From contig CAVQRT010000026.1 in the NCBI GenBank assembly GCA_963715195.1, forward strand, positions 1 through 38,882: DNA of 38,882 nt, read 5' to 3'. A program made the position numbers and the translations under genes. The notes under the pieces are model-generated. The model searched no databases and had not been told where the DNA came from. It saw nothing but the letters and a program-made list of their open reading frames with translations. This DNA comes from Thermodesulfovibrionales bacterium (GTDB lineage Bacteria; Nitrospirota; Thermodesulfovibrionia; Thermodesulfovibrionales; SM23-35). The stretch's first letter is position 1, and every line of letters starts with the position of its first letter. This document shows, piece after piece, positions 5-23,435 of the stretch.

Positions 5-146
5 ATTGAAGAAGTCCGCAAGAGAAGGATTTCGAAAACCTTGAAAATCTTAAAATTGTTTACTACACATAGAAATCTGCAATCTGGGGGGTTTTTGACT
101 TCCGTTAGTCCTTCCAGTAGTCCACAACTCCAGGAATTGTTATAAT
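5..146 (+). repeat. Copy A of dispersed module-boundary repeat (conserved block, 44-nt spacer, GTAGTCCACA motif, extended -10)
   Basis: 5-72 (ATTGAAGAAGTCCGCAAG...TACACATAG) aligns with the reverse complements of 11615-11680 and 22190-22255. AGTAGTCCACA at 116-126 and TGTTATAAT at 138-146 have counterparts in copy C. Confidence 0.85.
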
Positions 147-229
147 AGTGGGCATTTCAAGCGGTAATCATTGAATTGAGCCAATACTTTAACCTTTAAT
201 ATTCTAAGAAGGAGGATAAAATAAAAACC

Positions 230-1266
230 ATGAGAATAAGCAATTTGGGAAGATTCTATGCAGCATCTTAGTCATTGTACTTGTACTTGTACTTATTTGC
301 TTTGGATTTGTTAATACATCATTTGCACAGGACAATACAGAATTGGCAAAGCAGTCCCAGAACCCAGTTGCCAATCTGATAAGCGTGCCTTTTGAAAACT
401 GGCTCTATTACAACGTTGGCCCGGAAAACGAGACAGTATATTCCTTGATGGTAAAACCCGTCTACCCCGTGAGTTTCAAAAATATAAACCTCATTAACAG
501 ATTGATCCTACCGGTCATCTACCTGGAAGGTCAGGATGTTACGGTAGATACCAATGATGTTGGCATTGGGGCTGGCACGCAAACCGTTTCAACCGACGAT
601 GCGTTTGGACTGTCGAATATCCAGTATCAGGCCTTTCTCTCACCTGCGAAAGCAGGCAAGATAATATGGGGCGCGGGAATGGCGATGGAAATTCCCACAC
701 ACACGAAAGAAGCGCTTGGTTCTGATAACTGGTCTGCAGGCCCCGCATTCGTCGCGCTGGCCATGCCTGGGAAATGGGTATTAGGAGGACTTGTACAGCA
801 CTTATGGAACTTTGCCGGTCCCAGTGATGAGCCATCCCTGAGCAAGTCAACATTCCAGTATTTTATTAACTATAACATCACAAACGGGTGGTACCTTACG
901 ACAACGCCTACTATCGCGGCAAACTGGACAGCAAAGAGCAGTAAGGACATATGGACTGTCCCTGTCGGCGGAGGCATAGGCCGTCTCATGAAAGTCGGAA
1001 AGCTCCCCGTTGATTTCAAGTTGCAGGCTTATTACAACATAGAGAAGTCGAACTACGGGCCTGAATGGACCTCGATGTTTGCGTTTAAGTTCCTGTTTCC
1101 AAAATCGGCGCAATTCCAAACACTCTATAATGGGATAAAAATATGTGGATTACAATGTAAAGCAACAAAAAGACATATAGCTGATAGTCAGTTATACATC
1201 ATATCCTCATGCGTATGGCATTTTGCCCTATTACTGTGTTTTCCACAATTTGTAAGTACCTTATAA
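230..1266 (+). CDS. Putative outer-membrane beta-barrel transporter ('neuromedin U'-annotated family); frameshift near the start, true stop probably near 1105
   Basis: AGGAGG upstream of ATG 230. A signal peptide (..VIVLVLVLICFGFVNTSFAQ) joins ELAKQSQNPVANLISVPF after a 1-nt shift near 268. Alternating aromatic strands end FKFLFPK. Confidence 0.7.
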
Positions 1267-1282
1267 ATATTATTTTTCAATC

Positions 1283-1298
1283 TGGCATCATTGTTGCT
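1283..1298 (+). promoter_or_regulatory. sigma54 (-24/-12) promoter for the sulfatase gene
   Basis: TGGCATC-ATTG-TTGCT matches TGGCACG-N4-TTGCW spacing, 70 nt before ATG 1368. Palindrome GGCATTTTGCC near 1217 is a possible enhancer site. Confidence 0.65.
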
Positions 1299-1367
1299 TT
1301 TTCAACAAACATGCAAAAGAAGTCTGAATGAAAATATCAAAAAACCAACCAAAGAAAGGAGGATCAT

Positions 1368-3463
1368 ATGAAAACTGCAGTAAACCTTGTGTTAGTCTTA
1401 ACTCTCGTATTCTGTAGCTGGATCACCAGCCCTGCCTTCGCCGCTGGCGGCGGCGGTGTTGTTACGGCCGATCCAACGAAGCACTTTCACCCCAAGGGGA
1501 AGATGCCATCAAAGTTCACGGTGGAATTACAGAACGGGCTTCGCAAGTCATTGCCGTTTGATGACGAGCGCGATTTTGAAGAGTCAAAGAGAGGCTTTAT
1601 CGCCGCTCCCGAATACATGCAGATCATGGCTGATGCAGGCAACGTTGCATGGGACATGGGCAGCTATGAATGGCTGTTGCAGGGCAAGGATTTCGACAGC
1701 ATCCACCCCTCGCTGCAGCGTCAGGCGATACTGAATATGGGATACGGTCTGTATGAGGTCGTGCCAGACAGAATCTACCAGGTCCGTGGCTACGATTTAG
1801 CGAATATCAGCTTTATCAAGGGCGAAACCGGATGGATTGTGTTCGATCCACTGACTGCCAAGGAAACCGCGAGGGCAGCGCTTGAGTTCATTAACGAGAA
1901 GCTCGGGAAGCGTCCGGTTGTGGCAGTCGTTTATTCGCATTCCCACGCTGATCACTTCGGTGGTGTTCGGGGGGTCGTGGATGAAGCGGATGTGAGAAGC
2001 GGCAAGGTCCCAGTGATCGCTCCTATTGGTTTCATGGATTATGCAGTCTCCGAGAATGTTTACGCCGGTAATGCAATGAGCCGAAGGCTGTTCTACCGGT
2101 ACGGGGTGCTCTTGCGAGAAGCCCCTTCGGCCATGTTGATCAGTCTATCGGGAAGAATACAGCGGCAGGTAATCTTGGTCTCATTCCGCCGACTGTCATT
2201 ATCGAAAAGGATATCGAGGAAATGACCGTCGACGGTGTAAAGATGATCTTCCAGAACACCCCGGGCACTGAGGCGCCTGCCGAGATGAACACCTACTTCC
2301 CGCAGTTCAAGGCCTTCTGGCAGCTCAGAACATTTGCGCAACCATCCACAATATTTACACATTACGTGGGGCCTTGGTTCGTGACCCCCTTAAATGGTAC
2401 AAGGATATTAACAAGGCACTCTACCTTTTCGGGCAGGAGGCAGAGGTGATGTTTGCCTCTCATAGCTGGCCGCGGTGGGGTAATGAGAGGATTCAGGAGA
2501 TCATACGGGCACAACGGGACACCTATGCGAATCTTAACAATGGCGTTTTGCACCTCGCCAACCAGGGGGTAACCATCAACCAGGTTCACAACGTCTATGA
2601 TGTGCCCCTAAGCCTCCAGCAACAATGGGCAGCACGCAGTTACCATGGCTCAGTTGCACACAACAGCCGGGCTGTCATCAACCGGTACCTTGGCTATTGG
2701 GACGCCAACCCCACAACACTGATTCCACTCTCACCGGAGGATTCCGCACCGCTCTATGTCGAAATGATGGGTGGCGCAGAGAAGATCATGAAAAAAGGCA
2801 GGGAACTTTTCGATGAGGGCAAGTACCGCCATGCTCAGGAGATACTGAACAAACTGGTCTATGCTGAACCGAAGAACCAGAAGGCGAAGGACCTATTGGC
2901 GGATGTATTTGAGCAGATTGGTTACCAGCAGGAAAGCCCCAGTGTCCGTAACAGCTTCCTTGCAGGGGCATATGAATTGCGCTCCGGGATACCTACAGGG
3001 GCCTCACCAAAGAGTGGAGGTCCGGATATGATCCGTGCCATGACCACCGAGTTGTGGCTGGACTTCCTTGGCATTCGTCTGGACAGCAAAAAGGCTGAGG
3101 GTAACGAGTTTACGATTAACTTGATCAGCGCCAGACAATGACGAGAAGTTCATCGTGGAGTTAAGCAATGCAACTCTGACCAATATCAAGGGATTCCAGG
3201 CCAAGGATGCTGACCTGACTGTTACTATCAACCGCGCTGATTTGGAGGATACAATGCGTGGGCAGTCTCCTTCGACGAGCAGATTGCCTCCGGGAAGGCA
3301 AAGCTCGTAGGCAACCGTGAGCCATACAAACAGCTGAAGGAATTGCTTAGTGCACTTCGACCTCGGATTCGAGATCATGCCGGGTACCGCACCGGACACA
3401 CCAGGCAAAACTGACATGGAAGTGTTCGAGCAAGAACCGCCGGCTCGGAGCGATGGAGGTTAA
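1368..3463 (+). CDS. Secreted alkyl/aryl-sulfatase (SdsA1/BDS1/YjcS type: MBL fold, dimerisation and SCP2-like domains), split by several frameshifts
   Basis: Signal peptide; YSHSHADHFGG MBL motif; TPGTEAPAEMN, FASHSWPRWG, YLGYWDANP in successive ORF fragments; ends FEIMPGT...SDGG* at 3463. Confidence 0.88.
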
Positions 3464-3576: not shown

Positions 3577-3779
3577 TGCCTATTACAATCAGAATTCCTC
3601 ACTTCTCATTCGAGATCAGAAGTGTTTCTTTGTACCCATATAGAGGGCACCTGTCAAGAGGTAAAACGATCCTATACCAAGAAAGCTTTTCTTGTTTCAT
3701 AGCTTAAAGTTATCATTGTCCATTACCATTGCCGTTTTTTCTTTACTATAGTGCGTCAGTCTTCACTGCGCCACGCACC

Positions 3780-4035
3780 CATCAGGATTAAGGTTGTACC
3801 CTAAGACTATACTGCAAGGCAAACCCTTTCCGCTTCAATGCGGACCAGAAAACCTTCGGTTCCGGATCGGGTCCATTTGTTATATATCAGATCGCGTGGT
3901 TATAAGCCAACCCACCACTGGCTCCCGACGCGGACAGTAAAGACACTGATAACTTTTATGTTACTGGCGGGGACGGTTTGCCACTCAGGTGCTTGGTTTT
4001 TCCCAACAAGTACACAGGTTCACCGTTCCCGCCAG
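3780..4035 (-). ncRNA. Candidate bridge/seek RNA of the IS110 element
   Basis: Stem 3964-3977/4022-4035 and stem-loop domain 3885-3951. 3794-3801 is identical to the element end 3630-3637. IS1111-type elements are known to encode guide RNA downstream of the transposase. RNA boundaries are approximate. Confidence 0.65.
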
Positions 4036-4039
4036 ATCT

Positions 4040-5059
4040 TTATGCAAAGGCTTTTTCCGGCATGAATACCACTCCATCCTTCATGATGTAATACGCAGCT
4101 CTGGCCAGCTTGTGAGCAAGTGCGTTATGTGCTATTGGAGCATTCGTTTTCTGCAGTTTGCGCTGGTAATATGTTCGGGATTCAGCATCGAACAGTCGTG
4201 CATGATCAGAGGCCTCTGAGAATGCCCATGCCAGATATTTGTTGCCGTTTTTCCTGTTGCCCGCGCCCTTCTTCTTGTCATTACTAAACCGTCCGCTGGG
4301 AACCTTCCTGCAATATGAGACATAGTTACCGACTTTCTGGAATCGATCAATCGAGCCGGTCTCCAATTGAATCGTGAATGCAAGTATCTTCCCAACTCCC
4401 GGAATACTCAAGAGACGGTCATAGGGATTGCTTAACTGTATTCTTCCACCAATGGTTGCCTCTATAGTTTTGATCTGCCTGGTCATAAAGTCTATGGCCT
4501 CCTTGCTCACTTTTCCAGCCAGTGCAAGATCCTCATTGCCCTGAAAGAGAGGCATTACTCTGTCCGTCGTTAGAATCTTTACATCGTTTGACTTAAGCCT
4601 GCTGCCCAGATTCCGCGCGATAATGTTTTGAAGACTGACGATAAGCGATGTCCGCAATCTTACTAAATGTCCTCTCTTCCGCAACAGGTCTCGTATTGGT
4701 CGCTCTTCCTTAGGATAAATGTAACCCTCTGGCAGTATGTTGAGCCGTAACATCTCAGTAAGCCAAAATGCATCATGTTTGTCATCGGAGTATTTCAGTC
4801 CAGCATATTGCTGGGTCTTCATCACATTGGCCAGATGTACCCGGTATCCCTCTTCCTTTAGCAGATCAACCAAAAAGTACCAGTTGTACGTTGACTCTAC
4901 AACAATCCCTTCAATATCAGCTTTGAATGGTTTGAGTGCTTCTTTGATCCTGGCTGGATCATTGGGAAGTTTCTTCTTGAATACTCGCTTGCCTTTCTCA
5001 TCGCTGATACCCAAGTACGAGTTACTTGAATGCAAATCAAAAGCTGCATATAATCTCAT
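4040..5059 (-). CDS. IS110-family DEDD recombinase/transposase
   Basis: MRLYAAFDLHS, VVEST, KYSDDKHDA (DEDD); LSIPGVG; PSGRFSND with candidate catalytic Ser; GNKYLAWAF. GGAGG RBS supports ATG 5059 rather than 5134. Confidence 0.95.
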   Translation of the reverse strand: MRLYAAFDLHSSNSYLGISDEKGKRVFKKKLPNDPARIKEALKPFKADIEGIVVESTYNWYFLVDLLKEEGYRVHLANVMKTQQYAGLKYSDDKHDAFWLTEMLRLNILPEGYIYPKEERPIRDLLRKRGHLVRLRTSLIVSLQNIIARNLGSRLKSNDVKILTTDRVMPLFQGNEDLALAGKVSKEAIDFMTRQIKTIEATIGGRIQLSNPYDRLLSIPGVGKILAFTIQLETGSIDRFQKVGNYVSYCRKVPSGRFSNDKKKGAGNRKNGNKYLAWAFSEASDHARLFDAESRTYYQRKLQKTNAPIAHNALAHKLARAAYYIMKDGVVFMPEKAFA

Positions 5060-5355
5060 ACGGCACCTCCTAAAGGTTAAGATTGGTTTCATTCCTTGAG
5101 CATACCGCAACTCGATATGCTCAGGAGGTGCCATCTATATGATTATCGGCTGTAGTTCGCAAGGCATGAGAACGCTCTGAAGTGCGGACTTATTGAAGTA
5201 GCAAACGCTAATTATCTCTTCGTAATTGTTATAAACCGGGACGGAGAGAGCCCCCTCTCTCTCGCAGGACCGGCCCCTCGGTTGTCCTTCCTGATAACTT
5301 GATATATATATAGTCATAACTGCAACAGAATTATAGTCGAGGTATAAAATAATGC

Positions 5356-5921: not shown

Positions 5922-7038
5922 ATGATAGTAAAGAGGTGGTGCGACACTAAAAAGCGTTTTCTCTATTCTGTACGTCTGAGGGATGCAGATGGTAAAAGAC
6001 GTATGTTTGGTTCTGCACACACTTCCATTAAGTTGGTTAGGGAATTTGAGGAGAAGAAAAAGCGAGAGATAGCTGAAAAGAAGATGTTTCCAGAGAGGTT
6101 TGTTCAACGGATTCAATTGAAGGACTTTATTCCTGAGTATCTAGAAAAGCACGCTTCAAGAAAAAGGTCATACCGTGATTATCTCAGTATCTGCAAGAAG
6201 CTCTCAGCGTTCTTTGGTGAGTACTATCTCGATCAGATTACTAAATATCATGTGGAGACATATCAGAGTATGCGTTTTGAAAAGGTCGGGGTGTATATGC
6301 TGAATCGTGAGATAACAATTCTGAAGGGGATATTCACTAAGGCTATTGATTGGGGTTTTGTGTTCAAGAATCCTGTGAAGGGGGTAAAACTGGAGAAGGA
6401 AAAACCTCGTTTCAGGTTTTTGAATGAACAGGAGAGAAATAAGCTCGTGGATGCCTGTAATAAGGGTTCCCAAGGCTCGCTATTTGGTTTCAATGGTCAG
6501 GGTTGACCTGCTTACTGGTCTTAGGAAAGAGGAGTTATTAAGCCTCAAATGGAGGGCTGTAGACTTGGATAAGGATGTTATCTGGGTAGAAGATGGGAAG
6601 GGAGGTGATCAGAGAAGAATCCCAATAAATGAGACTGCAAAGGGTGAGTTGTGCAGGCTTCGGGAGAAGAAAAGGGGAGAGTTTGTATTTCATGACAGGT
6701 ATGGGAGGCAGTATAAGGACATCAAGAAGTCATTTCATTCTGCTGTGAAAGATGCAGGGTTAATGGATGTCAGATTTCATGACCTGAGGCGTACATTTGC
6801 TACCATGTGCGTGTTTAATAATATCTCTCCTAAGACTCTCATGAAGTGGATGGGTCATAAGTCCATTGAGACAACTATGAGGTACTATGTGGTGTCTCCT
6901 GAGGACTATGAAGTAGAGGCAATCAAGAGGTTAGATGGTAACCATAAACCAACTGACGATATTGAAGAAAAGGGAAAAGCTCGCAAGTTACTGAAAAATA
7001 TGGTGAGCCGTGTAGGATTCGAACCTACGACCCGCTGA
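5922..7038 (+). CDS. Phage-type tyrosine integrase (frameshift near 6465)
   Basis: NPVKGVK, LLTGLRKEEL (R), GKGG (K), FHDLRRTFAT (HxxR), MGHKSIETTMRY (H, Y). Confidence 0.93.
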
Positions 7039-7046
7039 TTAAGAGT
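7001..7046 (-). other. att core: 3' half of tRNA-Lys(CTT), overlapping the integrase C-terminus
   Basis: Reverse complement ACTCTTAATCAGCGGGTCGTAGGTTCGAATCCTACACGGCTCACCA gives anticodon loop CTT, T arm, acceptor 3' strand and CCA. No 5' half is present. Confidence 0.9.
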
Positions 7047-8661: not shown

Positions 8662-8767
8662 TTTTGCGAACTACTTCAATAAATACGCACCACGGAATAT
8701 TTTCGTGACATGCACGTTATTTCATCAACTACGCACCGTGCGCAACACTGGATAACTGCGGAGTACA
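8662..8767 (-). repeat. Partial copy D of the module-boundary repeat
   Basis: 8662-8689 matches 11662-11689 at 27/28. AACTGCGGAGTACA at 8754-8767 is identical to 11708-11721. Confidence 0.8.
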
Positions 8768-8856
8768 CCACAAGTCCTCAGCGCAAGGTATTAATAAATA
8801 TTGATGATTATTGGTTATAACATGCAGTGACACCACTCGAGAGGAAGATAAGCAAG

Positions 8857-9459
8857 CTATGTTGTACGTAGGTTGAACAGCTCGTTGATGTAATCAGGAG
8901 GTTCTCTTTGAAAGCGCCAAGGCCACAATCTCGATATTTCTCAACCATCATGATACGATAGGAAATCCGCATTCATTGAGGACCTTGGTTAAGGATTTCT
9001 GTGAAAATCCAGTCTTGTGTGCGAAGAAATCGTTCCCGCTTCGTTCTATTTCAACCCCGTATCCATAAATCACATCTCGCACGGTTATGGGCACGGCCGG
9101 GGACTGATACAAAAAATCATCGATATCCATCCCCTTATCCACCGCAATTCCGATCAACGCCTCTAAATCGGGAACGTTTATGTGTGAAACCCGTCCTCGT
9201 TTTAGTACGTGAGCAAAACCCAGGACGACTTTGCGGACATCGTGCCGGTAATAATGCTCGAGATTGTGTGAACAATAAATTGCATCATATTCATTTCCAT
9301 CCATGCTCAATAGATCTCGTGCATCGCAAACAATATCTGGGGCCCCCTTGGATCAATGTCTAGGAGAATGTGTTGCCAACCGCTGTAATGACCTGGGAGC
9401 GGAATATTTTTGCTGGTCCCGCCTACATTCAACATCTTTCTTGTACGTTGTTCTGTCAT
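8857..9459 (-). CDS. Class I SAM-dependent methyltransferase (frameshifted)
   Basis: MLNVGG..LLDIDP, then DAIYCSHNLEH..HVLK..INVPDL..FAHKTGF across ORFs 9307-9507 and 8948-9310. The C-terminus continues in another frame to TAG at 8857. Confidence 0.8.
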
Positions 9460-9561
9460 ATCGCGGATCCCAATAAATCGGAACGAACTACCGTACCCTA
9501 CGAGCAAACTTTAATCTGAAGCCATAAAATTTACAGATCATGCGAGTACTAATAGAAATAT

Positions 9562-11441
9562 TCATATTTGAGTAGATTTGCACCATGTCTCCCAAATCTC
9601 ACGGTAACATTTTTCTAAATTAGCAGTAAATCGTTTCGCATCAGTTAGTGGTGAGTGTGCCATTCTGTCTCTCAAACTTACACGTAAAATGCTTAATTTT
9701 TCAATGTCGGTTGCAAGACTAACAGCTAATTCAATGTATTCATCAGGTGTTTTGGCAACGAGCTCAGTGAAGACCGACATTCGACAAAAGACTTATTCCG
9801 ACACGTGAATGATAGGCAGTGCCTGCAAGAGTTATAACAGGCACTCCCATCCACATCGCTTCGCATGTCGTTGTTGCTCCATTGAACGGGAATGTATCCA
9901 AACCTATATCGACAAGGTTGTATGATTCCAGATGCTTTGGTGATGGATCCGATGAGGTTGCAATATAATTCGTTCTGCAGCAATACCTCTCTGTGTAAAC
10001 ATATCCATTGCATATTCACAAGTTGTTCTATCATAAAAACTCTTTCCCTTTATGATCAAACGTGAGTCTGGTACTTCATTTCAAAATCCTTGCCCACAGG
10101 GTAAAAACTTCAGAGGTTACTTTGGCGAAATTGTTAAATGAACCAAAGGTTATATGCCCTGTTGATAGGGCTGGAAGCTGCCAACCTCAGGGCTATCTCT
10201 ATCAGGCAGATAACAAAGAAAACTCTCAGGCAATCGTATCAGTTTTTCGGTATAGAATTGCTCGGTCTTTCCGATAGGATCAGTATAGATTATCAGCGAT
10301 TTTATAATCCATGGTTGACAGACCCGTGGTCGCAAGATACCCTATCCAGCTTATTTGAATCGGAGCTGGCTTTCGAGCAAATACTAATATTCGATTGTTT
10401 GCTGTATGTCCTGCTAAATCTACAAGTATATCAATTTTGTCTTTTCTGTATTAGTTCTGCAACCTCCTCATCAGATATTCCTGCAATGTTACGCCATTGA
10501 TCTGCATATCTCTTGAATACGTTTTGTTACTTCATCATGTTTGAAACTGTTTGAATAACAAAATACTTCAAAGTGTTCACGGTTGTGTGCAATTATCACT
10601 GGTTCAATAAAATATGCAACTGCATGTCTTCTGAAATCAGGGGAAACATAACCAATTTTTAGCCGGCGGTAGGGACTGTACGGTCATTTATGTTAGAGGG
10701 ACATTTAGAAAATAGGGGTTCTTCAAATTGTTTAGCAAATTCTAAATGCTCAGAGAAAATAGTTTGTGCATTATGTTTGGGATAATAACTTAACAACACT
10801 AAAAAAGCCTGATATAGTTTTAATTCATCAGGTTTTATTTGAATAGCACACTTGAAACATGTTTCAGCCTCTTCATGTAATCCCTGAGTCATTAAAATGT
10901 TCCCAAGGATATAATAGGCAATAACGTCAGATGGATTGATTTTTAATATATTTTGGCATATCTTCATAGCCTCACCCAATCGCCATGTTTTGACAAGAAC
11001 TGCGGCTAAACTATGATATGCCCGAACAAAATTAGGATCAATCTGAATGGTTTTTTGAAAATAAGCTATGGCATCATCAAGTTGCCCCTTTTTTTGTAAA
11101 ATATCACCTAAGTTGAAATGTGCTTCTGCTGAATTAGGCTTACTTTGTATGAATTTTGTATAGGCCTCAATTGCGTCATCGACTAACCCTTTTTGTTGCA
11201 AAGCCATACCAAGAGTAAAATACGCATCAGAATTGCTTGAATTAAGATGAATTGATCTTTTCATATGGTTTATTGCTAAATCGTAATTTTCTAATTGTGC
11301 ATTTATAATCCCGAGTAAGTACAAAATATCTGGATCATCTGGTTGTTTTCCAAGTGCTTCTTTGCAAAATTGCTCCGCTTGCTGCAAATTACCAGATTGA
11401 TAATGCTGAACAGCTAATTGGATCATTGTATTAATATGCAT
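9562..11441 (-). CDS. TPR-containing O-GlcNAc transferase-like protein (SPINDLY/GT41), several frameshifts
   Basis: TPR repeats in 10659-11441. Further fragments [71 protein letters not shown]. Confidence 0.88.
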
Positions 11442-11553
11442 TTTTTTAGTAGGTAAGAATAAAGATTATTAATAGAAATATACAATATTTTAGCAAACTT
11501 ATTCCTTGAATATTATAAGATTATAGGAAGTAGTGAGCGAAGTATAGAATCCT

Positions 11554-11721
11554 TCTGAAGTGCGGACTACTTCTATGAATCAATAGGAGTTAGACTTTTC
11601 TGATTTGTTTGTTACTATGTGTAGCAAACAATTTTAAGATTTTTGAGATTTGAAATCCTTGTTTTGCGAACTTCTTCAATAAATACGCATTTAGGAATGC
11701 TCTCAAAAACTGCGGAGTACA
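11554..11721 (-). repeat. Copy B of the module-boundary repeat
   Basis: Block 11615-11680 is 58/66 identical to 22190-22255. 44-nt spacer, then GTGCGGACTAC at 11560-11570. TCTGAAGTGCGGACT at 11554-11568 is identical to 5176-5190. Confidence 0.85.
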
Positions 11722-11830
11722 TCAGCAAACACTCATATTTACATGCTCTGCGCAGTGTGGACTTGTAGGTAGACTTCCCCTGAATTGATGGACACTCCTA
11801 ATAGTTAGTATCATTTGATAGGAGGTGTTC

Positions 11831-12133
11831 ATGGCAAAAGAGAGCAACCGCCGTCATTTCACAACAGAGTATAAGAAGAACGCAGTGAAACTGGTAACCG
11901 AAAAGGGGTTGCCGGTAGGCAAAGTAGCCCGTGATCTTGATATTCATCCACAACTCCTACATCAATGGAGAAAGAAGTACTTTCAAAAGGGCGAAGCTGC
12001 TTTTGTAGGGAAAGGGAATCCAAAGCCAGAGGATGCAGAAATGAAGAGAGTATTGAAGAAACTGGCAGAGGTTGAAGAGGAGCGTGACATTTTAAAAAAA
12101 GCGTTGGCCGTCTTCTCCAAACAGCAAGGATGA
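11831..12133 (+). CDS. IS3 transposase OrfA
   Basis: RRHFTTEYKKNAV..VARDLDI..LHQW HTH; EERDILKKALAVF. Confidence 0.92.
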   Translation: MAKESNRRHFTTEYKKNAVKLVTEKGLPVGKVARDLDIHPQLLHQWRKKYFQKGEAAFVGKGNPKPEDAEMKRVLKKLAEVEEERDILKKALAVFSKQQG

Positions 12134-12985
12134 AGTATCTGTTCATGGAGGAATACAGAGGAGTATTTAGGCTGAAGAGGATGTCCAAGGTCTTGAAAGT
12201 ATCTCGAAGTGGGTATTATGCATGGAGAAAGCGGAGGCCGAGCAGGCGAGAAGAAGCCAACAAAGGGCTTTTAGAACGCATTCGGGAGGTTTACAGAGAC
12301 AGCCGTAAGACCTATGGGAGTCCACGGATTACAGATGCGCTCAATGAACAGGGGATAGTATGTGGCAAGAACCGAGTCGCCAGGATCATGAGAGACAGCG
12401 GTATTCGGGTAAAGATGAAGAAGAGGTTCAAAAAGACAACAGATTCAGCACATGGGTATCCTGTAGCTCCGAATCTTCTCATGGAGAACAAGCAGACAGA
12501 ACGTTTATGGGTATCCGATATCACATTTATTCGTACTCGTGAGGGATGGCTGTATCTTTCAGCGGTTATGAATGTAGAAACGAGGAAGATCGTGGGATTT
12601 TCCATGAGAGATGAATTGTCGCAGGAGCTGGTTATGGCAGCATTGAGGCAGGCGATAGAGAGTTAGTCCACCTGAAGAAGGACTGATCCATCATTCTGAT
12701 CGAGGCAGGCAGTATGCGACATATGCGTATCAGGGACTTCTTCAGAAACATAATATCCTCTCCAGTATGAGCAGAAAGGGGCGTTGTTATGATAATGCAT
12801 ATATGGAATCGTTCTTTGCGACACTGAAGAAGGATTTAGTGCACGGTGAGAAGTACCAGACACGGCAAGAGGCAAGCTTAAGCATATTTGAGTATGTAGA
12901 AGTGTTTTATAATCGTATCAGAAAGCATTCGGCATTAGGGTATAAGAGTCCTGTACAATATGAAAAGGCTCTTAGTGTAACTTAA
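12130..12985 (+). CDS. IS3 transposase OrfB (DDE), broken near 12660-12770
   Basis: [53 protein letters not shown]. Confidence 0.9.
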
Positions 12986-13027
12986 TTCGGTGTCCACTTT
13001 TTCGAGGGAAGTCCAGGTAGAACTATA

Positions 13028-13077: not shown

Positions 13078-14244
13078 CTAAAATGCCGCGGCAATCTGAA
13101 TGGTGAATCTATTGTCTCTTGTAACTCCACTCGGTTTATCTGTCTGCGTCCAGTACTCTGCGAAACCTTTAATATTTTGCGTAAAGTAGAAAGTTACGTT
13201 TAGAGTGAGTTCATCATACTCATCTTCTCCATCTTTTTCTTCATAGCTATCAAAGCGAATTGCAGGCACTACAAGAGGTCTAGCATCTTTTTGAAATACA
13301 TAGAACGCTTGCAAATACCAGGCATTGTTTTGTTCATTTCCTCGTTCTTCTTTGTCGTCTTTTGCTTGAAGATATGCCCCTGTAACCCTCATATTATAAA
13401 AATCAGCCTGCACATCAAACCCGTAGCGGCTAAAATCACGTTCTGTATCATTTTCATTGTCATCCCACTCGCCAATCATACCGAATGCACCTATAGTTGC
13501 TTCTGGTATTATGTCAAAAGCAAGTCTTGCGTGAAGATTATTCGCATTCTCTCCCCTCTGAATCATCTGCCACACCACTATAACCAATACTGTAGAACAA
13601 CTGTTCTACAGGTCTTCCGTAAAGGGAAATTAATTGACGTGAATCTCCAAGAGTGCCGTCATTATCTGCCCCCCAAATACTTGATCAATTGGTGAGTATG
13701 AACCACGAGTAAGCCTACGATGTGGGGCAAACGTATCATAGGGGTCAGCCCATAACAGTGACGTATACCCAAGCTGTATATTGAGAAATTGAAAAGGATG
13801 GTATCCGAAAACACCAATTGGTATTTCAGGATCAAAATCTTCCTCATCTTCCGCTTCAATTTCTATAAATCCTGACACATTTTTATACAGTACGCCTGCA
13901 ACCATAAGTTCCACTTCATGAAGAGCTCTCACTTTTCTCACATCAGATCTTTTGTCATCGTAAGGTCGAGAGACAATAACCGCTGTAATAGGGACATGCT
14001 TATCCCACTGAAGGAAATCTGAGATAACCTCTTGGCTTTCTTCGTTAAAAGACAACTTATATCCGTTTTCCTTGAAATTCCTTCCCACTTTATTCAACTG
14101 TGGCCATGCAACATGGCACATATTGCAATCTGCCTGATACTTTCTTGCAAAGGCAGGAATCGCATCTGATACTTGTGGGAATACAGATACAAACAAACAT
14201 ACCAAAAAACAGACTGCGATGGATGTTATAACAAACTGTTTCAT
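13078..14244 (-). CDS. Cyc2-like monoheme cytochrome c-porin fusion (frameshift near 13660)
   Basis: Signal peptide, then AIPAFARKYQADCNMCHVAWPQLNKVGRNFKENGY (Cyc2-type N-terminus with CxxCH). Beta-barrel C-terminus ends NRFTIQIAAAF. Confidence 0.8.
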
Positions 14245-14347
14245 AATCTTTACCCCCTTTTTTCATCGACAATAGCAGTTTCGATGATAGATTTTGATAC
14301 AAAATCATAAATGATGAGCCCTGTAGTCTGTATGCGATTTAACAAAA

Positions 14348-16694
14348 TCAGAAAGAAACCCGTATCCCCCCTCCCCACCGAAACTCTGAATGCCACTGGG
14401 CAATAATGTCAAAGTGCTTGCTGACTGTATATGATGCCCCTACCGCACCCTCCCACATATCATGGGTGTCGTATTCTGTCTCGCCAAACAGTACCCAACG
14501 GGGTGTCAACTCAAACTCTTTGGCAAAGTTGAAACGTGCACCGCTGTCAGAATCCACCCAGATACGAGACTCGATATTGAGCGGGAGAAGGTAATGAAAG
14601 CCGAGTACCGCACGAATGTCTTCTTTCTGATTTCCTTCGCCCAATAAATCACCGCCGGCAAAGATACTGAAAAACCGGTTGAGATAACGTTCCCAGGTAA
14701 AAATAAATTCCCATTCCGTTTCATGCACATTCTGCCAGCCTACTTTCCATTCTGCAGCAAGAATGTTCCTGCTGTTTGAGATTTCAAAAGATCCCTCGGT
14801 CATATTGCTCAGAATTTCAGCTTCTGTCAGAAAATACCATGGATCGCGATAAAGCAGAGGCCGTACCTCGGCAAGTTCTTTGTCGATGGTGTATCCGTCA
14901 TAGTGGATAAGACGTGCCATGCCGCTTTTCATGTGATACAGCAGATGACAATGAAAGAACCAGTCGCCAAACTCATTCGCATCAAATTCGATCACTGTCG
15001 TCGACATCGGGGGAACATCCACGGTATGTTTGAGGGGAGCATAGTCGCCTTGCCCGTTGAGAACCCGGAAAAAATGGCCGTGCAGATGCATCGGATGATG
15101 CATCATTGTACGGTTAATCATAATGAAACGGACAATCTCTCCTTTTTTGATAAGTATGGAATCACTCTCTGAAAGGGGCTTGTTATTTAAAAACCACACA
15201 TAACGCTCCATATCTCCATCGAGTGTAAGGCGTATGATCCGTACCGGGCTTGTCTTCTTCAAAGCTTGTTGGTTTGACAGCCCGAAGTTTCTCATAAGGG
15301 TCCCAGGGCCTGCGTGGATCAATACCGTCAAGTGCAAGATTATGAGAGGATGATATATCTTCACCAAGCAGGCTGAAGCCTGAAGGCTGGTCTTCGCTGG
15401 TCATTTTCATATCTGATGTCATTTCGGACCCATGGTTAGCGTGACTCATGGTTCCGTTGGAATGGGATTTGTGATTCATCTCTGTTTTGGGAACCGTTGA
15501 ATGATCCATCTGCATGGTGTGATCATCTCCGTTCATTTCATGCATAGAACCCATTCCCATCATGCCAGGCTTATCAAACTTGCCTGCCTCAACCTGACTA
15601 TCCGACATGCCCATGCTGCCCGCAGGGGTAAGGGCAAAAAACTGCTTCAAGTGTAAGCCTCCCATAGTATGATAGAGGTTCGGCTTTGGCACATCAGGCA
15701 CATAATGTTTTTTCCCAGATCCGACCCATACAGATGCGTAGCCTGAACCATCATGAGCTGTTGCCCTGAGTTCATAAGACCCGGATGCGGGGACATGAAG
15801 TATTACGTCATATGTTTCAGCGACAGCAAGGAGAAAACGATCTGCCTTGACCGGTTCAACACGCAGTCCGTCTGCAGAAATAATGGTCACAGGCCCGCCA
15901 GCAAATTCTATATGGAAGTACGTGGTGGCAGAGCTGTCGATAAGGCGAAGCCTTATCTTTTCTCCTGGATTCGCTTCCAGTGATATTGCTGGGCTTCCAT
16001 TGGCTAGAAAACGGTCATATGCAACATCTGCAATATCCATAGGGGGCATTCGTTGAAGTTCACGCTGGAAATAGTCACCGAGCATCCCAAGTCGTGCAGC
16101 ACCAAAAATACTCTGTCCGCTGTGCTTTTGAATCGCATACCACTCGCTTCCTCGTTTTAGCGTCCTTAACACTTCATGGGGATCTTCATCTGTCCAATCG
16201 GAAAAAAGTACTACATAGTCTTTGTCGGTTTTTACCTTGTTGTTTTGTGGTTCAATGACAATAGCTCCGTATACCCCGCTCTGTTCCTGCAGATTTGTGT
16301 GGGAATGATACCAGTATGTACCGCTCTGGCGAATAGAAAACTCATAGGTAAATGTTTTGCCCGACTGGATTGGAGGAAAACTGATAAGAGGAACCCCGTC
16401 CATGCCAGGGGGGACAAGAATACCATGCCAGTGGATTGAGGTCTCCACATCCATCTCGTTGTGGACATGGATGCGTGCGGTATCTCCTTCTGTGAAGCGG
16501 AGCGTAGGGCCGGGAATCCTTCCGTTTATCGTCATTCCCAAGCTTGGCTTTGATGTGATGTGAATTTGTTTCTGTTCAATCGTCAGGTCATACTCGACCG
16601 TTGCAGCATGCACTACTCCAAGAAAACAGAAGGCTACAAGCCCCAAGCTAAGAACAGAAAATGCAATCTTCCTCAATAAATGATCATTTTCCAC
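14348..16694 (-). CDS. CopA-type multicopper oxidase with Met/His-rich linker fused to a C-terminal CopB-like beta-barrel (frameshift near 15260)
   Basis: HWHG, YWYHSH, HPMHLHGH, HCHLLYHM Cu motifs. C-terminal amphipathic strands end GGGIRVSF. Confidence 0.9.
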
Positions 16695-17110
16695 TATTTC
16701 ATCTGCATCATCATATCAAGGGACTTATCCATTTCCATCATCTGTTTTCTCATATCATTCATATCTTCCTGAGTAGCCTTGCCTTCCTTCATCATGCTTG
16801 ACATGTCCATCATCTGCTCTGACATATGTTCCATAATTCCGGACATTTCATGCATCTGCGACATATTCATGCCTTTCCCCATCATCTTCGACATACCCTG
16901 CATCATTCCCGACATCTGGTCCATGTTCTGCATCATAGGTGTCATCATTCCCTGCCCCATCATCATGCCTTGACCCATCATCTGCTGTTCGCCCATCATG
17001 TCACTTCCCATATGTCCTTTGCCTTCCATCATGTCCCCGCCCATTTGTGCAAAGCTATAGGAAAATAGCACAATGGTGAGCAGGCTGGTTATGAAGAGTA
17101 CTTTTTTCAT
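16694..17110 (-). CDS. Secreted Met-rich protein, probably metal (Cu) binding
   Basis: Signal peptide (..SYSFA) and a very Met-rich mature region. Stop overlaps the oxidase GTG start. GGAGG RBS. Confidence 0.8.
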   Translation of the reverse strand: MKKVLFITSLLTIVLFSYSFAQMGGDMMEGKGHMGSDMMGEQQMMGQGMMMGQGMMTPMMQNMDQMSGMMQGMSKMMGKGMNMSQMHEMSGIMEHMSEQMMDMSSMMKEGKATQEDMNDMRKQMMEMDKSLDMMMQMK

Positions 17111-17199: not shown

Positions 17200-17466
17200 A
17201 GATATAAGTTATTGTTTTATTTATATATTGACCAAGAGGACTCGAAGATTTTCGGGCAATTTGTCCGTGAATAAGCTGTTTTTGCCAAAATATGTATTAA
17301 CGAGTTTATCGTTGTACTTCGCAACTTACAAGGGTTCACAATGGTGCACAGTTCAGGCAGGAATAAACAGTAGGTTAAAATTATGAACAGTGTGAACTTC
17401 TATGTGAAGGTTGCAAGAGAGACTTAATCTGACATGTCTGTAAAGTGAAATCTTATCTATTCCAAT

Positions 17467-18033: not shown

Positions 18034-18059
18034 TTGATTCTGCTGTTTTAAGTGAGGAA

Positions 18060-18269
18060 TTATTCTTCTTCAGGTTCTATATCAACTAATATTTTTTCAA
18101 CTTCTTTCTGTGTATTTCTCAGTCTGTCTTTACAGTACTTTATCAGTTCTGATGCCCTTTTAACTTTTGCGGCCAGAACATCAACATCAATCTCACCCGA
18201 TTCTATGTCTTGGACAATTGATTCAAGCTCTGTAATTGCTGTTGTATAAGTTAATTTACTCTTTGACAT
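18060..18269 (-). CDS. xseB: Exodeoxyribonuclease VII small subunit
   Basis: YTTAITELESIVQDIESGEIDVD..VKRASELIKYC; overlaps xseA. Confidence 0.93.
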   Translation of the reverse strand: MSKSKLTYTTAITELESIVQDIESGEIDVDVLAAKVKRASELIKYCKDRLRNTQKEVEKILVDIEPEEE

Positions 18270-19596
18270 CCATTGCCTCCACTTTGCTTTTAACGCTTCC
18301 TCTAAAAAACTTAGTTCTTATTATATTCCCTTTTTGCAGCTCATTGCGGTCTTTGATTGCTTTTTCGTGTAAATAGGTAATGCTAAAGCCTCTTTTAAGA
18401 ACATTGACGGGATCAAGAAGCCTTATCGCTTGTTCGAAATTCCCTATCTTGCTTTCATGTCCCTGGAACAGTATTTTTACCCCACTCATAAGCTTGTTCA
18501 CATCGAGCGTTAGTTTATTATTATCCCCATCAACTATCTGTGTTGAACCATGAATCAATCTGTGCAAAACCGATTCTGTCCTTTTAGTCTCACCATGAAG
18601 CCTGTCTTTGACCATATGTTGCAATGTTTGTGTCAGATACTGCAGACTGTAACCTTCTTCTCTCAGGAATTCTTTTGCCCGCTCTGTTAATGTGCTCTGT
18701 GCATCCAAAAGTCTTTCTTCGAAAATGCTCATCCCCGACAAAAGGAAATCGGCTACAGCAGTAGGTGTTTTCAGTTTTGTGTGAGACACCATGTCCACTA
18801 CTGTATCATCCCTCTCATGTCCGATTCCTGTTATGACAGGCAGAGGGAATTTGGCAACCTCAACAGCAAGACGATATGTATCGAAACAGCTTAAATCAAC
18901 CTGTGAGCCTCCGCCTCTGATGATTACCACAGCGTCATAAAGGGTCTTTTGCCTTCTTACGTGGGCCAAAGAGGACAGGATAGATACCTCGGCCTCCTGC
19001 CCCTGCATTAGAGCCTGATGAAGTGTATGGAAGATTTTGTATCCGTAAGGATTATCATCAATATGGTCAATGAAGTCTCCGTATCCTGCTGCCGTTTTCG
19101 ATGATATAATCGCAATCCTCTGGGGAACCAACGGCAAGGGGATCTGTTTGTTGAGGTCGATAAAACCTTCTTTTGTTAATCTCTCTATAACCTCTCTTTT
19201 TTTCTTTGCCATTTCCCCGAGTGAATAAGTAGGATCTATGTCTTTTACATTCAAACTCAGCCCATAGACTTCATGAAAAGTAACATTTACTTGAAGCAAT
19301 ACTTTCATGCCTTGCTTCAAGGTCTCTTCTGTTGCTTCCTTAAATTTTGATGAAAGATTCCTGAATGTGTAAGCCCAGATGTTGGCTCTAATTTGGGCAA
19401 TGGTTTTCTCTTCCTCTCTTTCCACGAGTTCAAGATAGCAATGTCCCTTGGAATTACATCGGATTTCGGATATTTCCGAAATGACCCATATAGATTCAGG
19501 AAAGGCAATTTCTAAGGTTGCCTTAATAGCCGTGTTTAATTCAGACAGCGTTAATACTGGCATACTTGAGTATACTTCTGCTTGTGCTTGTTTCAT
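18256..19596 (-). CDS. xseA: Exodeoxyribonuclease VII large subunit (alternative start 19563)
   Basis: GHCYLEL, IIRGGGS, PVITGIGHERD, KTPTAVA, LDPVNVLKRGFS. Confidence 0.95.
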   Translation of the reverse strand: MKQAQAEVYSSMPVLTLSELNTAIKATLEIAFPESIWVISEISEIRCNSKGHCYLELVEREEEKTIAQIRANIWAYTFRNLSSKFKEATEETLKQGMKVLLQVNVTFHEVYGLSLNVKDIDPTYSLGEMAKKKREVIERLTKEGFIDLNKQIPLPLVPQRIAIISSKTAAGYGDFIDHIDDNPYGYKIFHTLHQALMQGQEAEVSILSSLAHVRRQKTLYDAVVIIRGGGSQVDLSCFDTYRLAVEVAKFPLPVITGIGHERDDTVVDMVSHTKLKTPTAVADFLLSGMSIFEERLLDAQSTLTERAKEFLREEGYSLQYLTQTLQHMVKDRLHGETKRTESVLHRLIHGSTQIVDGDNNKLTLDVNKLMSGVKILFQGHESKIGNFEQAIRLLDPVNVLKRGFSITYLHEKAIKDRNELQKGNIIRTKFFRGSVKSKVEAMDVKE

Positions 19597-20649: not shown

Positions 20650-20701
20650 CACTATTGAGATTTTTTTAAAAAGCGAGGACTACTGGTAGAAATATGCAAA
20701 T

Positions 20702-22034
20702 TTATTTATCAGAGTAATGTAAATAGGAAAACAGGTAGGATCGAAGGTTGGTTTTCTTGTTTTGTAACCCTAATTTCCTTCTGATACTCCCCCTGTGAAA
20801 GGCTATTGCCTTGGGGGAACTATTTAATAAGTCAGCAATCTCTTTGCTCCTCTTTCCTTGCTTTATAAGGTTTGCCACTTGTATTTCAGTTGGGGTAAGG
20901 TTTAAATCAGTTTTGGAAAATTTCAAAGCAAAGGATGAGACTACCTCATCCAGATTTGATTCAATGATATCCACAAGTGTTTCCTGAGATTTTATTCAGG
21001 TCTTCCTTCTTTAATTTCTCCAGATAAGGTTTCACAATTTCCCTTATACTCATCATTACTTTCTCTTCACCCCGAATCTTTTCTTCGTCTCTTTTTTGCA
21101 GTAATACTTTTAATGCTGTATTTAATTCTTCGAGATTTTGTGTCTTAATCTCCAATTCCTTTTCTCTTTCCTGCAGAGCTATCTCTGTTTCCTTCCTCTC
21201 AGTGATGTCTCTTGCCATTGAGAGCGCCCCGGTTATATTACCTTTTGTATCTTTGAGCACCCGGCACCACCAGGCGAGCAAAGGCTTTTCCCCATCTTTG
21301 CGACGCTGCCAGCTTTCGACATAGAATACGTCTTCCTCGCCCTTAAAGAGAGGTTGGACTGTTTTATAGGTTTACTGCTCTCCTTCAAAATAAAATGCGG
21401 CTTCCTTGCCGATTACATCTTCTCCGAAGAACTCTATACCAGGCTGATTCGACCAAGTGTATACTTTGTTTGTGTCCACTTCCATAATGAAGTACGGTAC
21501 TGCGGCAAGTATGGCTTGCTGTTTCGAGGATAAAGCTTTAAACGACTCCTCTGCCTGTTTTCGTTTAGTAATATCTCGTCCTATTGCAATAATATACTCA
21601 GGGTTTCCATTCTTTTCCTTTATAGCCGCCCCTGTGTACTCAGTCGGTATGGATCTTCCATCTTTTGTTATTAGGGTTAATTCAATAGTAACTGTTTCTT
21701 CCTGTAATATTTTCTCAGTACTGTCTGTTGCCTTTTTTAAATCTTCTTTACTTTAGTAACTATCCGAAGCTTTCAACGACCGTATCTCTTCATCACTATA
21801 TCCTGATATTTCATTAAACGCCTTATTCCATCGAATAACTCTTCCTGTTCTGGGGTTAAATATAAAGAAGGTATCTCGTTGGGCATTTAGTGCTGCTTCC
21901 GTAAGTTCTTTTTTCACTTTGAACTTCTCAGTTTGTTTCCGATTAGCTTCATTTTTTTCTAATTTCTTTACACGACGGCGAAGTTTTACCAATTCATCTA
22001 AAAGTTGTCTTTTTGTCTTATCTGTGTCTTGCAC
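20702..22034 (-). CDS. PAS-domain LuxR-type transcriptional regulator (several frameshifts)
   Basis: MQDTDKTKRQLLDEL coiled coil; PAS fragments (WNKAF..SGYS, RDITERK); LEELNTALKVLL; LTPTEIQVANLIKQGKRSKEIADLL..HRGSIRRKLG. Confidence 0.85.
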
Positions 22035-22112
22035 AATATTTACGACTTTTTTTCAAATAAATAGATCGTTTCAAAAAATAATCAATTTTCGATATTAATT
22101 ATATTCTGCACC

Positions 22113-22290
22113 ATTATATCAAGTTTAAGGAGTGTGGACTACTAAGGGGATTCAGGACAAGTGTAGTTTTTTAATATTGCTGACTTCTTCTATGTGTAGC
22201 AAAAAATTTTAAGATTTATGAGGTTTGAAATCCCTTTTTTGTTTACTTCTTCAATTAATACACTTAATTTAAAGTTCTTACGGACTATTG
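22113..22290 (-). repeat. Copy C of the module-boundary repeat
   Basis: Block 22190-22255, 47-nt spacer, GTGTGGACTAC at 22132-22142, minus-strand TGATATAAT at 22113-22121. Confidence 0.85.
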
Positions 22291-22310
22291 ATTTCTTTTA
22301 ATAATCTTCA

Positions 22311-23237
22311 CTATTTTTTATATTTTTTTAACTCTTTCTGCAATCTCTCATTTTGTTTTTTTAGTTCTACCATCCTTAATTCTCTTCCGACTGCCATGTT
22401 ATAAAACTCTTCAAGTTCGTGAACTTTTTCTATAAGCTCTTTCTTTTGCTTTGTTATTTCTTCCTCCGCTTGTTTACGCTCAGTTATATTGTGAGCCGCC
22501 TCAATCACCCCTTTCACTTCCCCCCTGTCGTCAAGGACAGGATACACATGCAATTCCCAGATCCTTCCGTCGGGAGTCTTCGCTTCAACAATTTTCGGTT
22601 TATGAGAGGCGTAACAGTCCAGCACAGGACACATTGCACAGGGCTTTGCCCGCCCATGTCGCACCTTGTAACAGTACTGCCCGATAAAATCATCCACACT
22701 CATATTCATGTTCTTTGCGGCGACCTCATTTGACCAAATGATCTTAAAATCACTGGAAAGAAGCACAAGAGCATCAGGAATCGCATCGAGAATCCCCCGG
22801 AATTCCCGGTACAGGGACCGATATTTTCTTTCGCTCTTCTTGATTTCTTCCTCAAGAAGCTCGAACTTAGTGATGTCCCTAAAAATACCTGCAATATAAT
22901 ATTCCCCAGATAATACTATTGGGAATGACTTAATCTCTGCATAAAAAATGCTCCCGTCTTTTCTTTTAACCGGAATATCACTAGCTAATTCTATTCCTTT
23001 TTTTGACATTTTATTAAAATGTTTAATTACAATAGGGAGGCTCTCTTCAGGATGGATATCCGTTACCCCCAAGTTTTTAATTTCCTTCAGAGAATAACCC
23101 AGCATCTCGCAAATCATCTTATTGCCCAGAAGGAATTTCTTGTTTTCAACATTCGCAATAAGCATCCCGTCTGAAGCGTTATTAAAAATCTTTTCATATA
23201 TTTCAGATAATGCTTCTTGCTTATTTTTGTCTTTCAT
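22311..23237 (-). CDS. Tandem-PAS sensor protein with C-terminal coiled coil and no output domain
   Basis: Two PAS/PAC units (RKDGS..FRDIT; CY..CAMCPV..HNITERK); ends GRELRMVELKKQNERL. Confidence 0.85.
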   Translation of the reverse strand: MKDKNKQEALSEIYEKIFNNASDGMLIANVENKKFLLGNKMICEMLGYSLKEIKNLGVTDIHPEESLPIVIKHFNKMSKKGIELASDIPVKRKDGSIFYAEIKSFPIVLSGEYYIAGIFRDITKFELLEEEIKKSERKYRSLYREFRGILDAIPDALVLLSSDFKIIWSNEVAAKNMNMSVDDFIGQYCYKVRHGRAKPCAMCPVLDCYASHKPKIVEAKTPDGRIWELHVYPVLDDRGEVKGVIEAAHNITERKQAEEEITKQKKELIEKVHELEEFYNMAVGRELRMVELKKQNERLQKELKKYKK

Positions 23238-23417
23238 CTTAAGGCCTTAATCCTAATTGGTTACTAATAGAACTATAAAGGGTTTGATGTAAGTCGTCAA
23301 CACAATAGATCAAGAAGGATTGTTTCCTGTGTATTTCCAATGGAAGTTTTGCCCCAAAAATAAGAAATAGTCTCCGTGTTTCAATTTGAAATAAAAGAAC
23401 TTCGGAAATTGCACAGG

Positions 23418-23435
23418 TGCTGACTTCTTCTATGT
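23418..23435. repeat. 18-bp direct repeat of 22178-22195 at the accessory/core boundary
   Basis: TGCTGACTTCTTCTATGT is identical at both positions. Confidence 0.85.

Follow-up and report, generated by a model that had tools for sequence, protein, structure and literature searches.

What is the repeat family that separates groups of accessory genes in a Thermodesulfovibrionales contig, and does it serve to move them? We asked this of contig CAVQRT010000026.1 (GenBank assembly GCA_963715195.1), the whole 38,882 nucleotides of which are called the window below. The window is the entire contig C26 of the source genome (G000: 2.81 Mb, 36 contigs, 97.8% complete, 6.6% contaminated), many genes of which are frameshifted, probably by long-read errors. 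A first-pass annotation had proposed that the repeats are recombination ends with an outward promoter, through which cassettes accrete as in an integron. Comparison of the sites and their flanks indicates that they very probably belong to a site-specific chromosomal system for the exchange of gene modules, with a new site design and run by a tyrosine recombinase.

The three full copies reported earlier (A, B, and C) are present at the positions given for them, and blastn against the 2.8-Mb genome relates them to each other well beyond chance (E 1.8e-16 for A/B, 4e-12 for A/C, and 4.2e-19 for B/C). The agreement of B with C at 58 of 66 positions, the gaps of 44, 44, and 47 nt to the motif GTAGTCCRCA, the TGnTATAAT that follows in A and C, and the partial copies at 5151–5190, 8662–8767, 20677, and 23418–23435 were likewise reproduced, but this inventory had missed a full R end at 17345–17415 and sites at 3577, 8802, 22286, and 23328–23397. 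The repeating unit is not the proposed 66-bp block but a 25-bp imperfect palindrome made of a 9-bp arm, a 7-bp core, and a second 9-bp arm, and a second palindrome of the same 9-7-9 build lies 45–47 bp to one side of the core site. The spacer that had been called unconserved begins with a conserved 9-bp arm and ends in this second palindrome. In each pair, one member has a core of one of two classes, L (CTTCCTG, CTTCATC, or CTTCAAT) or R (CTATGTG or GTAGGTG), and the other, the accessory, has a variable centre; because the second site is on one side only, each end has a polarity. The 66-bp block itself is an R core, 52 bp, and an L core, that is, a short R-to-L linker that is also found on C35. 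A second linker type, of 83 bp, occurs twice in the source genome and six times in regions of a closed relative (G042, one 3.6-Mb contig). In the genome collection its pattern was matched at 15 loci, of which 14 are Nitrospirota and one carries the label Bathyarchaeota; they overlap the genomes searched separately and are not independent of them. The Bathyarchaeota-labelled locus is a 6-kb contig (L224), reflecting either mis-binning or transfer.

CACATAG is the best of all 7-mers for a following arm in the source genome (16/189, p 3e-17), a test that is partly circular as the arm was taken from the window. The accessory lies on a fixed side of CTATGTG (31 versus 5 of 188) and of CTTCCTG (26 versus 2 of 910). 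When a core-blind profile of inner arm plus accessory, trained on the G042 regions, was applied to the source genome, its 213 matches included the R cores CACATAG (19) and CACCTAC (3) and the L cores CTTCCTG (15), CTTCATC (10), and CTTCAAT (5); ATAGAAG, an R core plus three extra bases, was found 5 times and nearly every other 7-mer once. The same profile gave 80 matches in mainly deltaproteobacterial loci, with CACCTAC in 22 (a count inflated by the choice of loci) and CTTCCTG in 13. A loose genome-wide scan for pairs was noisy (462 pairs), yet spacings of 45, 46, and 47 bp were in excess (30, 37, and 25 versus 8–20 at other spacings). The gap test for a 7-bp core is mildly biased toward 7 by the selection of sites, and strict pattern searches were too narrow, reaching 7 of 41 genomes. 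The R cores with three extra bases (window 22187–22196 and 23427–23436, C17:4687, and C30:152210) can be read as overlapping L and R cores and are possibly products of an off-register L-by-R crossover.

The reading of the copies as recombination ends that punctuate accessory modules is supported, and DNA changes partner exactly at identical cores. Contigs C11 and C12 represent one locus with different cargo: they are 99.3% identical up to an L core and 99.4% identical again from an R core. At the L core 50/50 positions are identical outside and 23/50 inside, and at the R core 31/50 are identical inside and 50/50 outside. The cargo between these points is unrelated, 3.9 kb (a multicopper oxidase, a sensor kinase, and small genes) in one case and 5.6 kb (a 1586-amino acid surface-type protein) in the other. 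C11 also shares 1.4 kb with C23, ending at another R core (20 versus 48 of 50 positions). In the closed genome, a 1056-bp unit (99.5% identity) occurs at two loci between directly repeated L cores CAGGAAG (17|50 and 50|17 of 50 positions), and a 529-bp one-gene unit (99%) occurs twice between inverted L cores (24|50 and 50|16); the latter is 83% identical to a source-genome unit that stops at an L core. Further cases are 1.5 kb in common (90%) between G013 and G020 that starts at an R core and 3.4 kb in common between two loci of one deltaproteobacterium that runs from an R core to an L core. Junctions at identical cores, the counterpart of pdif crossover at identical or near-identical spacers, are seen twice in C11/C12, once in C11/C23, and twice each in L179/L185 and L179/L189. 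Two sequences inside the C11/C12 module (L006:8060–8143 and L005:9803–9886) resemble a c-di-GMP-I riboswitch (E 2.7e-9, below the gathering score), and an apparent reading frame that ends at the R core in C11, C12, and C16 was rejected as an open reading frame (ORF). A 128–133-amino acid hypothetical protein is the sole cargo of the segment between inverted L cores in two genera (L179:10724–11125 and L006:9419–9805), and the look-alikes of the 133-amino acid protein of this mobile outer module are all unnamed.

Several results weigh against an exchange system. Although the exact cases bear out the prediction that copies mark synteny breakpoints, a shared core was found at 20 of 1617 interior ends of source-genome self-matches, not above the 2% expected by chance, because most repeats are ordinary paralogues. 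A separate comparison gave 32 of 286 ends with a shared core, 22 of them ends of a mobile element (duo) described below. The breakpoint evidence therefore rests on a handful of exact cases, of which C11/C12 may come from two strains, given the contamination of the assembly; confusion of the assembler by seven-base repeats is unlikely, as they are too short. In no other genome did a window module turn up with both of its ends. A clear side bias was not seen for CTTCATC (10 versus 10 of 1013), CTTCAAT (5 versus 5 of 753), or GTAGGTG (4 versus 2 of 119), and arms are weak, with a mean of 3.7 of 9 positions complementary at cores. The cut-off that yields about 97 ends in the source genome also passes 21 cores of the wrong polarity, and counts from G042 overlap the training set of the site profile. 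Neighbouring ends point in the same direction in 34 of 61 intervals of the source genome and 24 of 59 in the G042 regions (4 of 24 in regions of the deltaproteobacterial genomes G141 and G142); missed sites may account for part of these departures from alternation. The search for an enzyme found no recombinase for the sites, and in 65 loci no recombinase gene lies consistently beside them. A weak hint of recombination in another organism comes from one assembled contig (depth 2; four of six DNA runs, shares 0.05–0.07) in which position 5201 is joined to 11658, close to the B linker and an L core.

In the proposed mechanism, the 7-bp core would be the strand-exchange overlap, the second palindrome would be an accessory binding site, and only like cores would recombine, L with L and R with R. 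A module would come in on a circle or second replicon and integrate via one core class; resolution via the other class would then replace the resident cargo and leave the flanks intact, a natural two-site cassette exchange. A single crossover would add, delete, or copy a unit between like cores, and the same rule would govern the movement of segments flanked by outer arms, whether these are linkers of 59 or 83 bp or carry genes. The distribution of ends is consistent with such a scheme. A profile scan of the kind suggested by the earlier work revealed members of the family throughout the genome, chiefly on its small accessory contigs, and in relatives as well. Only 5 of the approximately 97 ends in the source genome fall in ORFs of ≥100 amino acids, which cover 80% of the genome, and reversed cores gave 1 match. 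Modules with both accessories inside are bounded by an L and an R end in 8/14 cases in the source genome, 19/21 in the G042 regions, and 12/12 in the G141/G142 regions (39/47 together, binomial p 3e-6 versus one half; the three sets were picked around profile matches). In the 12 G141/G142 regions, linkers are 56–69 bp. Two polar core classes, modules bracketed at both ends, and cargo exchanged between fixed flanks replace the single site type with integron-like accretion of the first-pass annotation, and the co-orientation of cargo with copies gave way to no direction rule at all (13 versus 11 in the source genome; 29 versus 10, in the opposite way, in the G042 regions). The claim that no copies lie beyond 23.5 kb nearly holds: of 36 window profile matches, the single one located there just reaches the threshold and has no class core.

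Mobile elements of four unrelated kinds insert into the sites. The first, which we call duo, is a 2.1-kb element on C14 with two Xer-like recombinases, 80 of whose 164 relatives found were compared. It is flanked by 7-mers of the core classes, the arms outside match those of the window, and an accessory site lies on the predicted side. Copies from Nitrospirota have a constant right 7-mer and a variable left one, 22 copies of deltaproteobacterial type have CACCTAC on both sides, and in G003 and G004 the element adjoins a CACATAG core. That a tyrosine-recombinase element has precisely these 7-mers at its flanks fixes the 7-bp register. An independent arm profile made from 115 duo target flanks in other genomes (L032, whose left end was mis-assigned, was left out) ranked 11 of the 12 named sites among the best 0.1% of positions in the window and also revealed second sites at +46 and at −46 (with means of −1.5 and −2.1 versus −6.1, SD (standard deviation) 0.9). 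The second, IS91-type element (IS, insertion sequence; L179:3182–5766 in G042) is 2.58 kb long, encodes a tyrosine recombinase and an IS91-type transposase, and inserts into 9-7-9 sites; its three near-identical G042 copies each directly follow a 9-7 half site, one of which is the accessory of an R end, and relatives occur in 31 of 141 genomes. The third, the window IS110 element, splits a site and has 89–91% identical copies in four other genomes of the family. Among 10 aligned loci of IS110 relatives, 6 had both flanks, and by eye the flanks together rebuild an exact R core in 3 of these, an R core with one or two mismatches in 2, and an L core in 1, so the IS110 guide RNA may be programmed for these sites. 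The fourth, the window IS3 element, and its 90% identical sister on C14 each adjoin a core. Targeting by several elements suggests that the sites are a stable resource, as for pdif (PMC10132070). Separately, window 11514–11530, beside a TAGGAAG centre, resembles the upstream end of IS110, accounts for the 5136/11514 repeat, and is possibly the remnant of a second IS110 insertion.

Alternatively, the sites could be no more than footprints or preferred targets left by the repeated insertion and excision of tyrosine-recombinase elements, with the junctions as by-products. The constant 7-mer on one side of duo matches the core classes (CAGGAAG, CACCTAC, and GATGAAG) and could overwrite targets, a deleted duo remnant is present in G060, and site counts tend to be higher in genomes with duo (medians 7 versus 6, 11 versus 45 genomes, p 0.07). 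We nevertheless regard this explanation as improbable: it does not account for 83-bp R-L linkers conserved across genera, for the L-R pairing of inner modules, or for cargo exchange in the absence of any element. In addition, the closed genome G042 has 26–44 R matches, spread along its single contig, and 99% identical duplicates, yet no duo gene or exact duo end, and IS110, which uses a different chemistry, also targets the cores.

If an exchange system is present, which enzyme runs it? A serine recombinase does not fit an odd-length centre, and the serine resolvase family PF00239 has no match in G000, G010, or G142. It is possible, at somewhat less than even probability, that a mobile Xer-like pair of the duo type acts in trans, and a mobile enzyme is favoured by the patchy range and by the occurrence of identical cores in two phyla. 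The duo gene was found in 11 of 56 genomes of the family (E 1e-40), probably an under-count in fragmented metagenome-assembled genomes (MAGs); G060 retains remnants of duo ends, and G042 and G010 have neither the gene nor an exact end. Under the inner-arm profile, the arm of duo itself is at background level, as are the host dif arms, and the duo ends are without the 46-bp accessory. The host's XerC/XerD and another tyrosine recombinase are, each by itself, somewhat unlikely as the enzyme. Among simple tyrosine recombinases, only the XerC- and XerD-like genes are common to the site-rich genomes examined (G000, G042, G010, G060, G141, and G142; the gene scan covered five Pfam/NCBIfam families in few genomes), and they are also present in the site-poor G001 and G002; G022 and G053 gave two SAM_1 matches each and nothing more. 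This speaks for a variant in which host XerC/XerD would act on atypical sites and the module system would consist of chromosomal dif modules with accessory sites and a spacer of 7 bp. Similarity to the XerC arms of PMC13141974 (Table 1) is seen in some arms, and site-hunting IS elements are known at pdif (PMC10132070). An inverted duplication at C30:147693–147740 holds a dif-like site (6-bp centre) fused to an L core. Yet the arms of the host's own dif (C7:154508, at C7:154504–154531, with a 6-bp centre and a motif that recurs in many genomes of the order) fall at the 48th and 35th percentiles under the inner-arm profile, the background median, and arm position 2 is A in 81% of the 115 target arms and T in dif. 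Sister families with the same dif were without sites in the genomes searched, whereas two deltaproteobacteria have the same cores. We therefore consider this variant of the system rather unlikely.

Other candidate enzymes and sites were set aside. The window integrase at 5922 is directed to tRNA-Lys, as the first-pass annotation had it: it is followed by the 3′ 46 nt of tRNA-Lys(CTT), 95.7% identical to the genome's tRNA, and is of the tRNA-Lys island type. A 364-amino acid recombinase-like protein common to G010, G042, and G060, whose C-terminal repeats we take to be TOBE-like, is encoded among transport genes and missing from G000. For the IS91-type element, the tyrosine recombinase is present in 21 of 56 family genomes and absent from G000. 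The short pieces of recombinase at C31 and C7 are remnants of phage integrases, and a dif candidate on C31 was found in 1 of 41 genomes, the real dif being that on C7. The integron integrase IntI (TIGR02249, E 1e-40) has no match in G000, G010, or G142, one over the cut-off in G042, and one fragment in G141. The passages of PMC8138268 that catalogue subgroups of simple recombinases do not describe the duo pair.

The promoter-like motif raises the question of whether the sites are instead transcription-factor operators that spread along with co-regulated accessory genes. The sites are palindromic, intergenic, and often paired, and the TGnTATAAT-type extended −10-like motif occurs in 20 of 173 ends (16/100 L and 4/73 R, versus 1.4% in shuffles); in 15/100 L ends its offset is fixed. 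It points into the module in these ends, so it is not an outward promoter carried by each end. A conserved polar 7-bp centre is not needed by an operator, and ends are also found at the 3′ ends of genes (22249); with the exact breakpoints at cores and the mixed direction of genes, these features make operators a very improbable explanation. Single-strand hairpin sites (attC-like or repetitive extragenic palindrome (REP)-like) or relics of miniature inverted-repeat transposable elements (MITEs) are more improbable still. A GTAG tetramer precedes some arms and the IS91-type element uses the sites, but the ends fold no better than shuffles (mean z −0.2 to −0.3; below −2 in 1/24 L and 3/29 R ends), the attC box pair is present in 0 of 53 ends, Rfam has no match in the window or over sites, and IntI is missing from the three genomes named above; this proposal is already largely refuted. 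The earlier statement that the repeats are neither attC nor dif (here the host's own) nor CRISPR holds, and they are no Rfam RNA either.

We return to the exchange system and compare it with those known. Integrons and clusters of attC sites lacking integron-integrases (CALINs) are tandem arrays of accessory genes separated by recombination sites, and attC is defined by RYYYAAC...GTTRRRY boxes and a folding bottom strand. The window resembles them in its accessory-gene arrays with recombination sites between, and differs in having no IntI in the source genome, no attC boxes or hairpin, two site classes, and multi-gene modules in either orientation. Xer sites such as cer and psi consist of a core plus one-sided accessory motifs. 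The dif modules are a closer model than integrons. In Acinetobacter Rep_3 plasmids, as described in PMC13141974, C and D modules alternate, exchange occurs at identical 6-bp spacers, and replacement proceeds via a cointegrate and its resolution, a route that the C11/C12 pair fits. Other likenesses to dif modules and pdif (PMC13141974 and PMC10132070) are polar sites that bracket modules with the inner or outer side facing in, a module swapped between matching left and right spacers in two steps, empty modules, and IS elements that hunt sites. The present system differs in that the core has 7 bp where dif modules have a 6-bp centre, the arms are unlike those of the host XerC/XerD dif, an accessory palindrome lies 46 bp inside, two phyla share just two core classes, some 100 ends lie on the chromosome and not on Rep_3/OrfX plasmids, and module types do not strictly alternate. 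The sites were not filed with dif modules because the site definition fails, though they work alike. The TnpI/IRS system of Tn4430, as presented in PMC2847244, has a core site with one-sided accessory motifs that give polarity, comparable to our second site. There, however, one IRS alone serves for resolution, next to its gene, the cleavages are separated by 6 bp, and DR1-DR2 are direct repeats, whereas here the accessory is a palindrome and the sites are dispersed with no gene attached. Engineered recombinase-mediated cassette exchange with heterospecific lox or FRT sites also swaps cargo between two non-cross-reacting spacers and keeps the flanks; the present system would be natural, genome-wide, and equipped with accessory sites, with non-cross-reactivity inferred. 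No published description of these sites was found in the literature searched, which leaves most subscription papers and supplements outside its coverage.

The sites are concentrated in one family and recur in another phylum. An R-end model (R1, built from 43 sequences, with at most 35 candidates per genome scored) had matches in 50 of the 56 genomes of the same family; 39 of these had at least three matches and 10 had a single one. In other families of the order 23 of 84 genomes had matches, mostly single, and in a phylum sample 26 of 150 did, 20 of them in one family of 38 and 0 in families of 25, 12, and 7. Among genomes labelled delta proteobacterium, G141 had 46 and G142 had 28, some of them training sequences, and both have the same cores and layout; G143–G145 had 1, 2, and 0. 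Judged by a shared mobile element and by the linker pattern, the nearest named relatives of the source genome are Thermodesulfovibrionales and other Nitrospirota MAGs. Among 72,556 plasmids there was no real site match, with 3 short chance DNA matches and no duo match, and the 1 match in viral contigs, within a coding region, was judged chance. Based on these results, we tentatively suggest, with some doubt, a horizontally shared two-key system in which one recombinase and two reserved 7-bp cores, compatible across Nitrospirota and deltaproteobacteria, would open about a hundred chromosomal positions to a cross-phylum module pool, with at least four mobile-element families specialised as site parasites.

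A system of this kind would add to integrons and dif modules a third way of shuffling genes as modules, one that acts chromosome-wide in uncultured sediment and soil bacteria and escapes attC- or dif-based searches. It would give a testable rule, two cores and one accessory site, for how the accessory genome builds up in these lineages, and it would explain the targets of the two-recombinase element. If true, a natural recombinase with two orthogonal cores is also a candidate tool for cassette exchange.

The sites, modules, and elements are listed in the table.

Table. Sites, modules, and mobile elements of the window, with duo-related sequences elsewhere in the source genome
Feature	Position	Strand	Remarks
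L core 5–11 with outer arm	5..20	-	Inner side lost at contig start
Linker between L and R cores (copy A)	12..65	.	
R end, module 1	57..126	+	Core CACATAG 66–72; accessory palindrome 102–126; TGnTATAAT 138–146
Module 1 cargo	230..3417	+	Outer-membrane-type (barrel-like) protein without Pfam match at E 0.001; frameshifted alkyl sulfatase
Accessory palindrome 3577–3601 and left half of IS110-split site	3577..3633	.	
IS110-family element in core of 9-7-9 site	3634..5147	-	Pfam
Right half of IS110-split site, then L site 46 bp on	5148..5207	-	Core 5192–5198; partial copy E of first-pass annotation
Frameshifted phage-type tyrosine integrase, then tRNA-Lys(CTT) 3′ fragment (46 nt)	5922..7045	+	Not the cassette enzyme
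L end, module 2	8665..8826	+	Core CTTCAAT 8674–8680; accessory 8711–8735; copy D; R-like core one base short near 8766; accessory 8802–8826
Module 2 cargo	8948..11441	-	TPR protein (Pfam), broken downstream frames
R end, module 2	11515..11630	-	Sites at 11515 and 11561; core CTATGTG 11615–11621
R-to-L linker (copy B)	11622..11673	.	Cores 59 bp apart
L end, module 3	11665..11771	+	Core 11674–11680; accessory 11711–11735; R-like core 11765–11771 at IS3 junction
IS3-family element at R-like core 11765–11771	11772..13015	+	
Module 3 cargo	13078..17110	-	Multicopper oxidase cluster, Met-rich protein
R end, module 3	17299..17415	-	Core 17400–17406; accessories 17345 and 17299
Lone accessory-type palindrome	20674..20698	.	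Lacks a class core at 46 bp; probably the left end of module 4 in decayed form
Module 4 cargo	20702..22034	-	Broken PAS/LuxR regulator
R end, module 4	22133..22205	-	Core 22190–22196 with 3 extra bases on inner side; accessory 22133–22157
R-to-L linker (copy C)	22197..22248	.	Cores 59 bp apart
L end, module 5	22240..22310	+	Core 22249–22255; accessory 22286–22310
Module 5 cargo	22311..23237	-	Two-PAS protein
Degenerate R end, module 5	23328..23442	-	Accessories 23328 and 23373; core near 23427–23436
Duo element	C14:81805-83946		
Duo, partial second copy	C14:78718-80373		
Duo, lone right end	C30:152228-152333		

Outward of the R core at 17400, before the decayed end of module 4, are genes for a HAD protein, a second xseA, and a metallo-hydrolase. 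In this stretch (window 18256–19596), the second xseA is 73% identical to the copy on C30, and the hydrolase region is 97% identical to G003.

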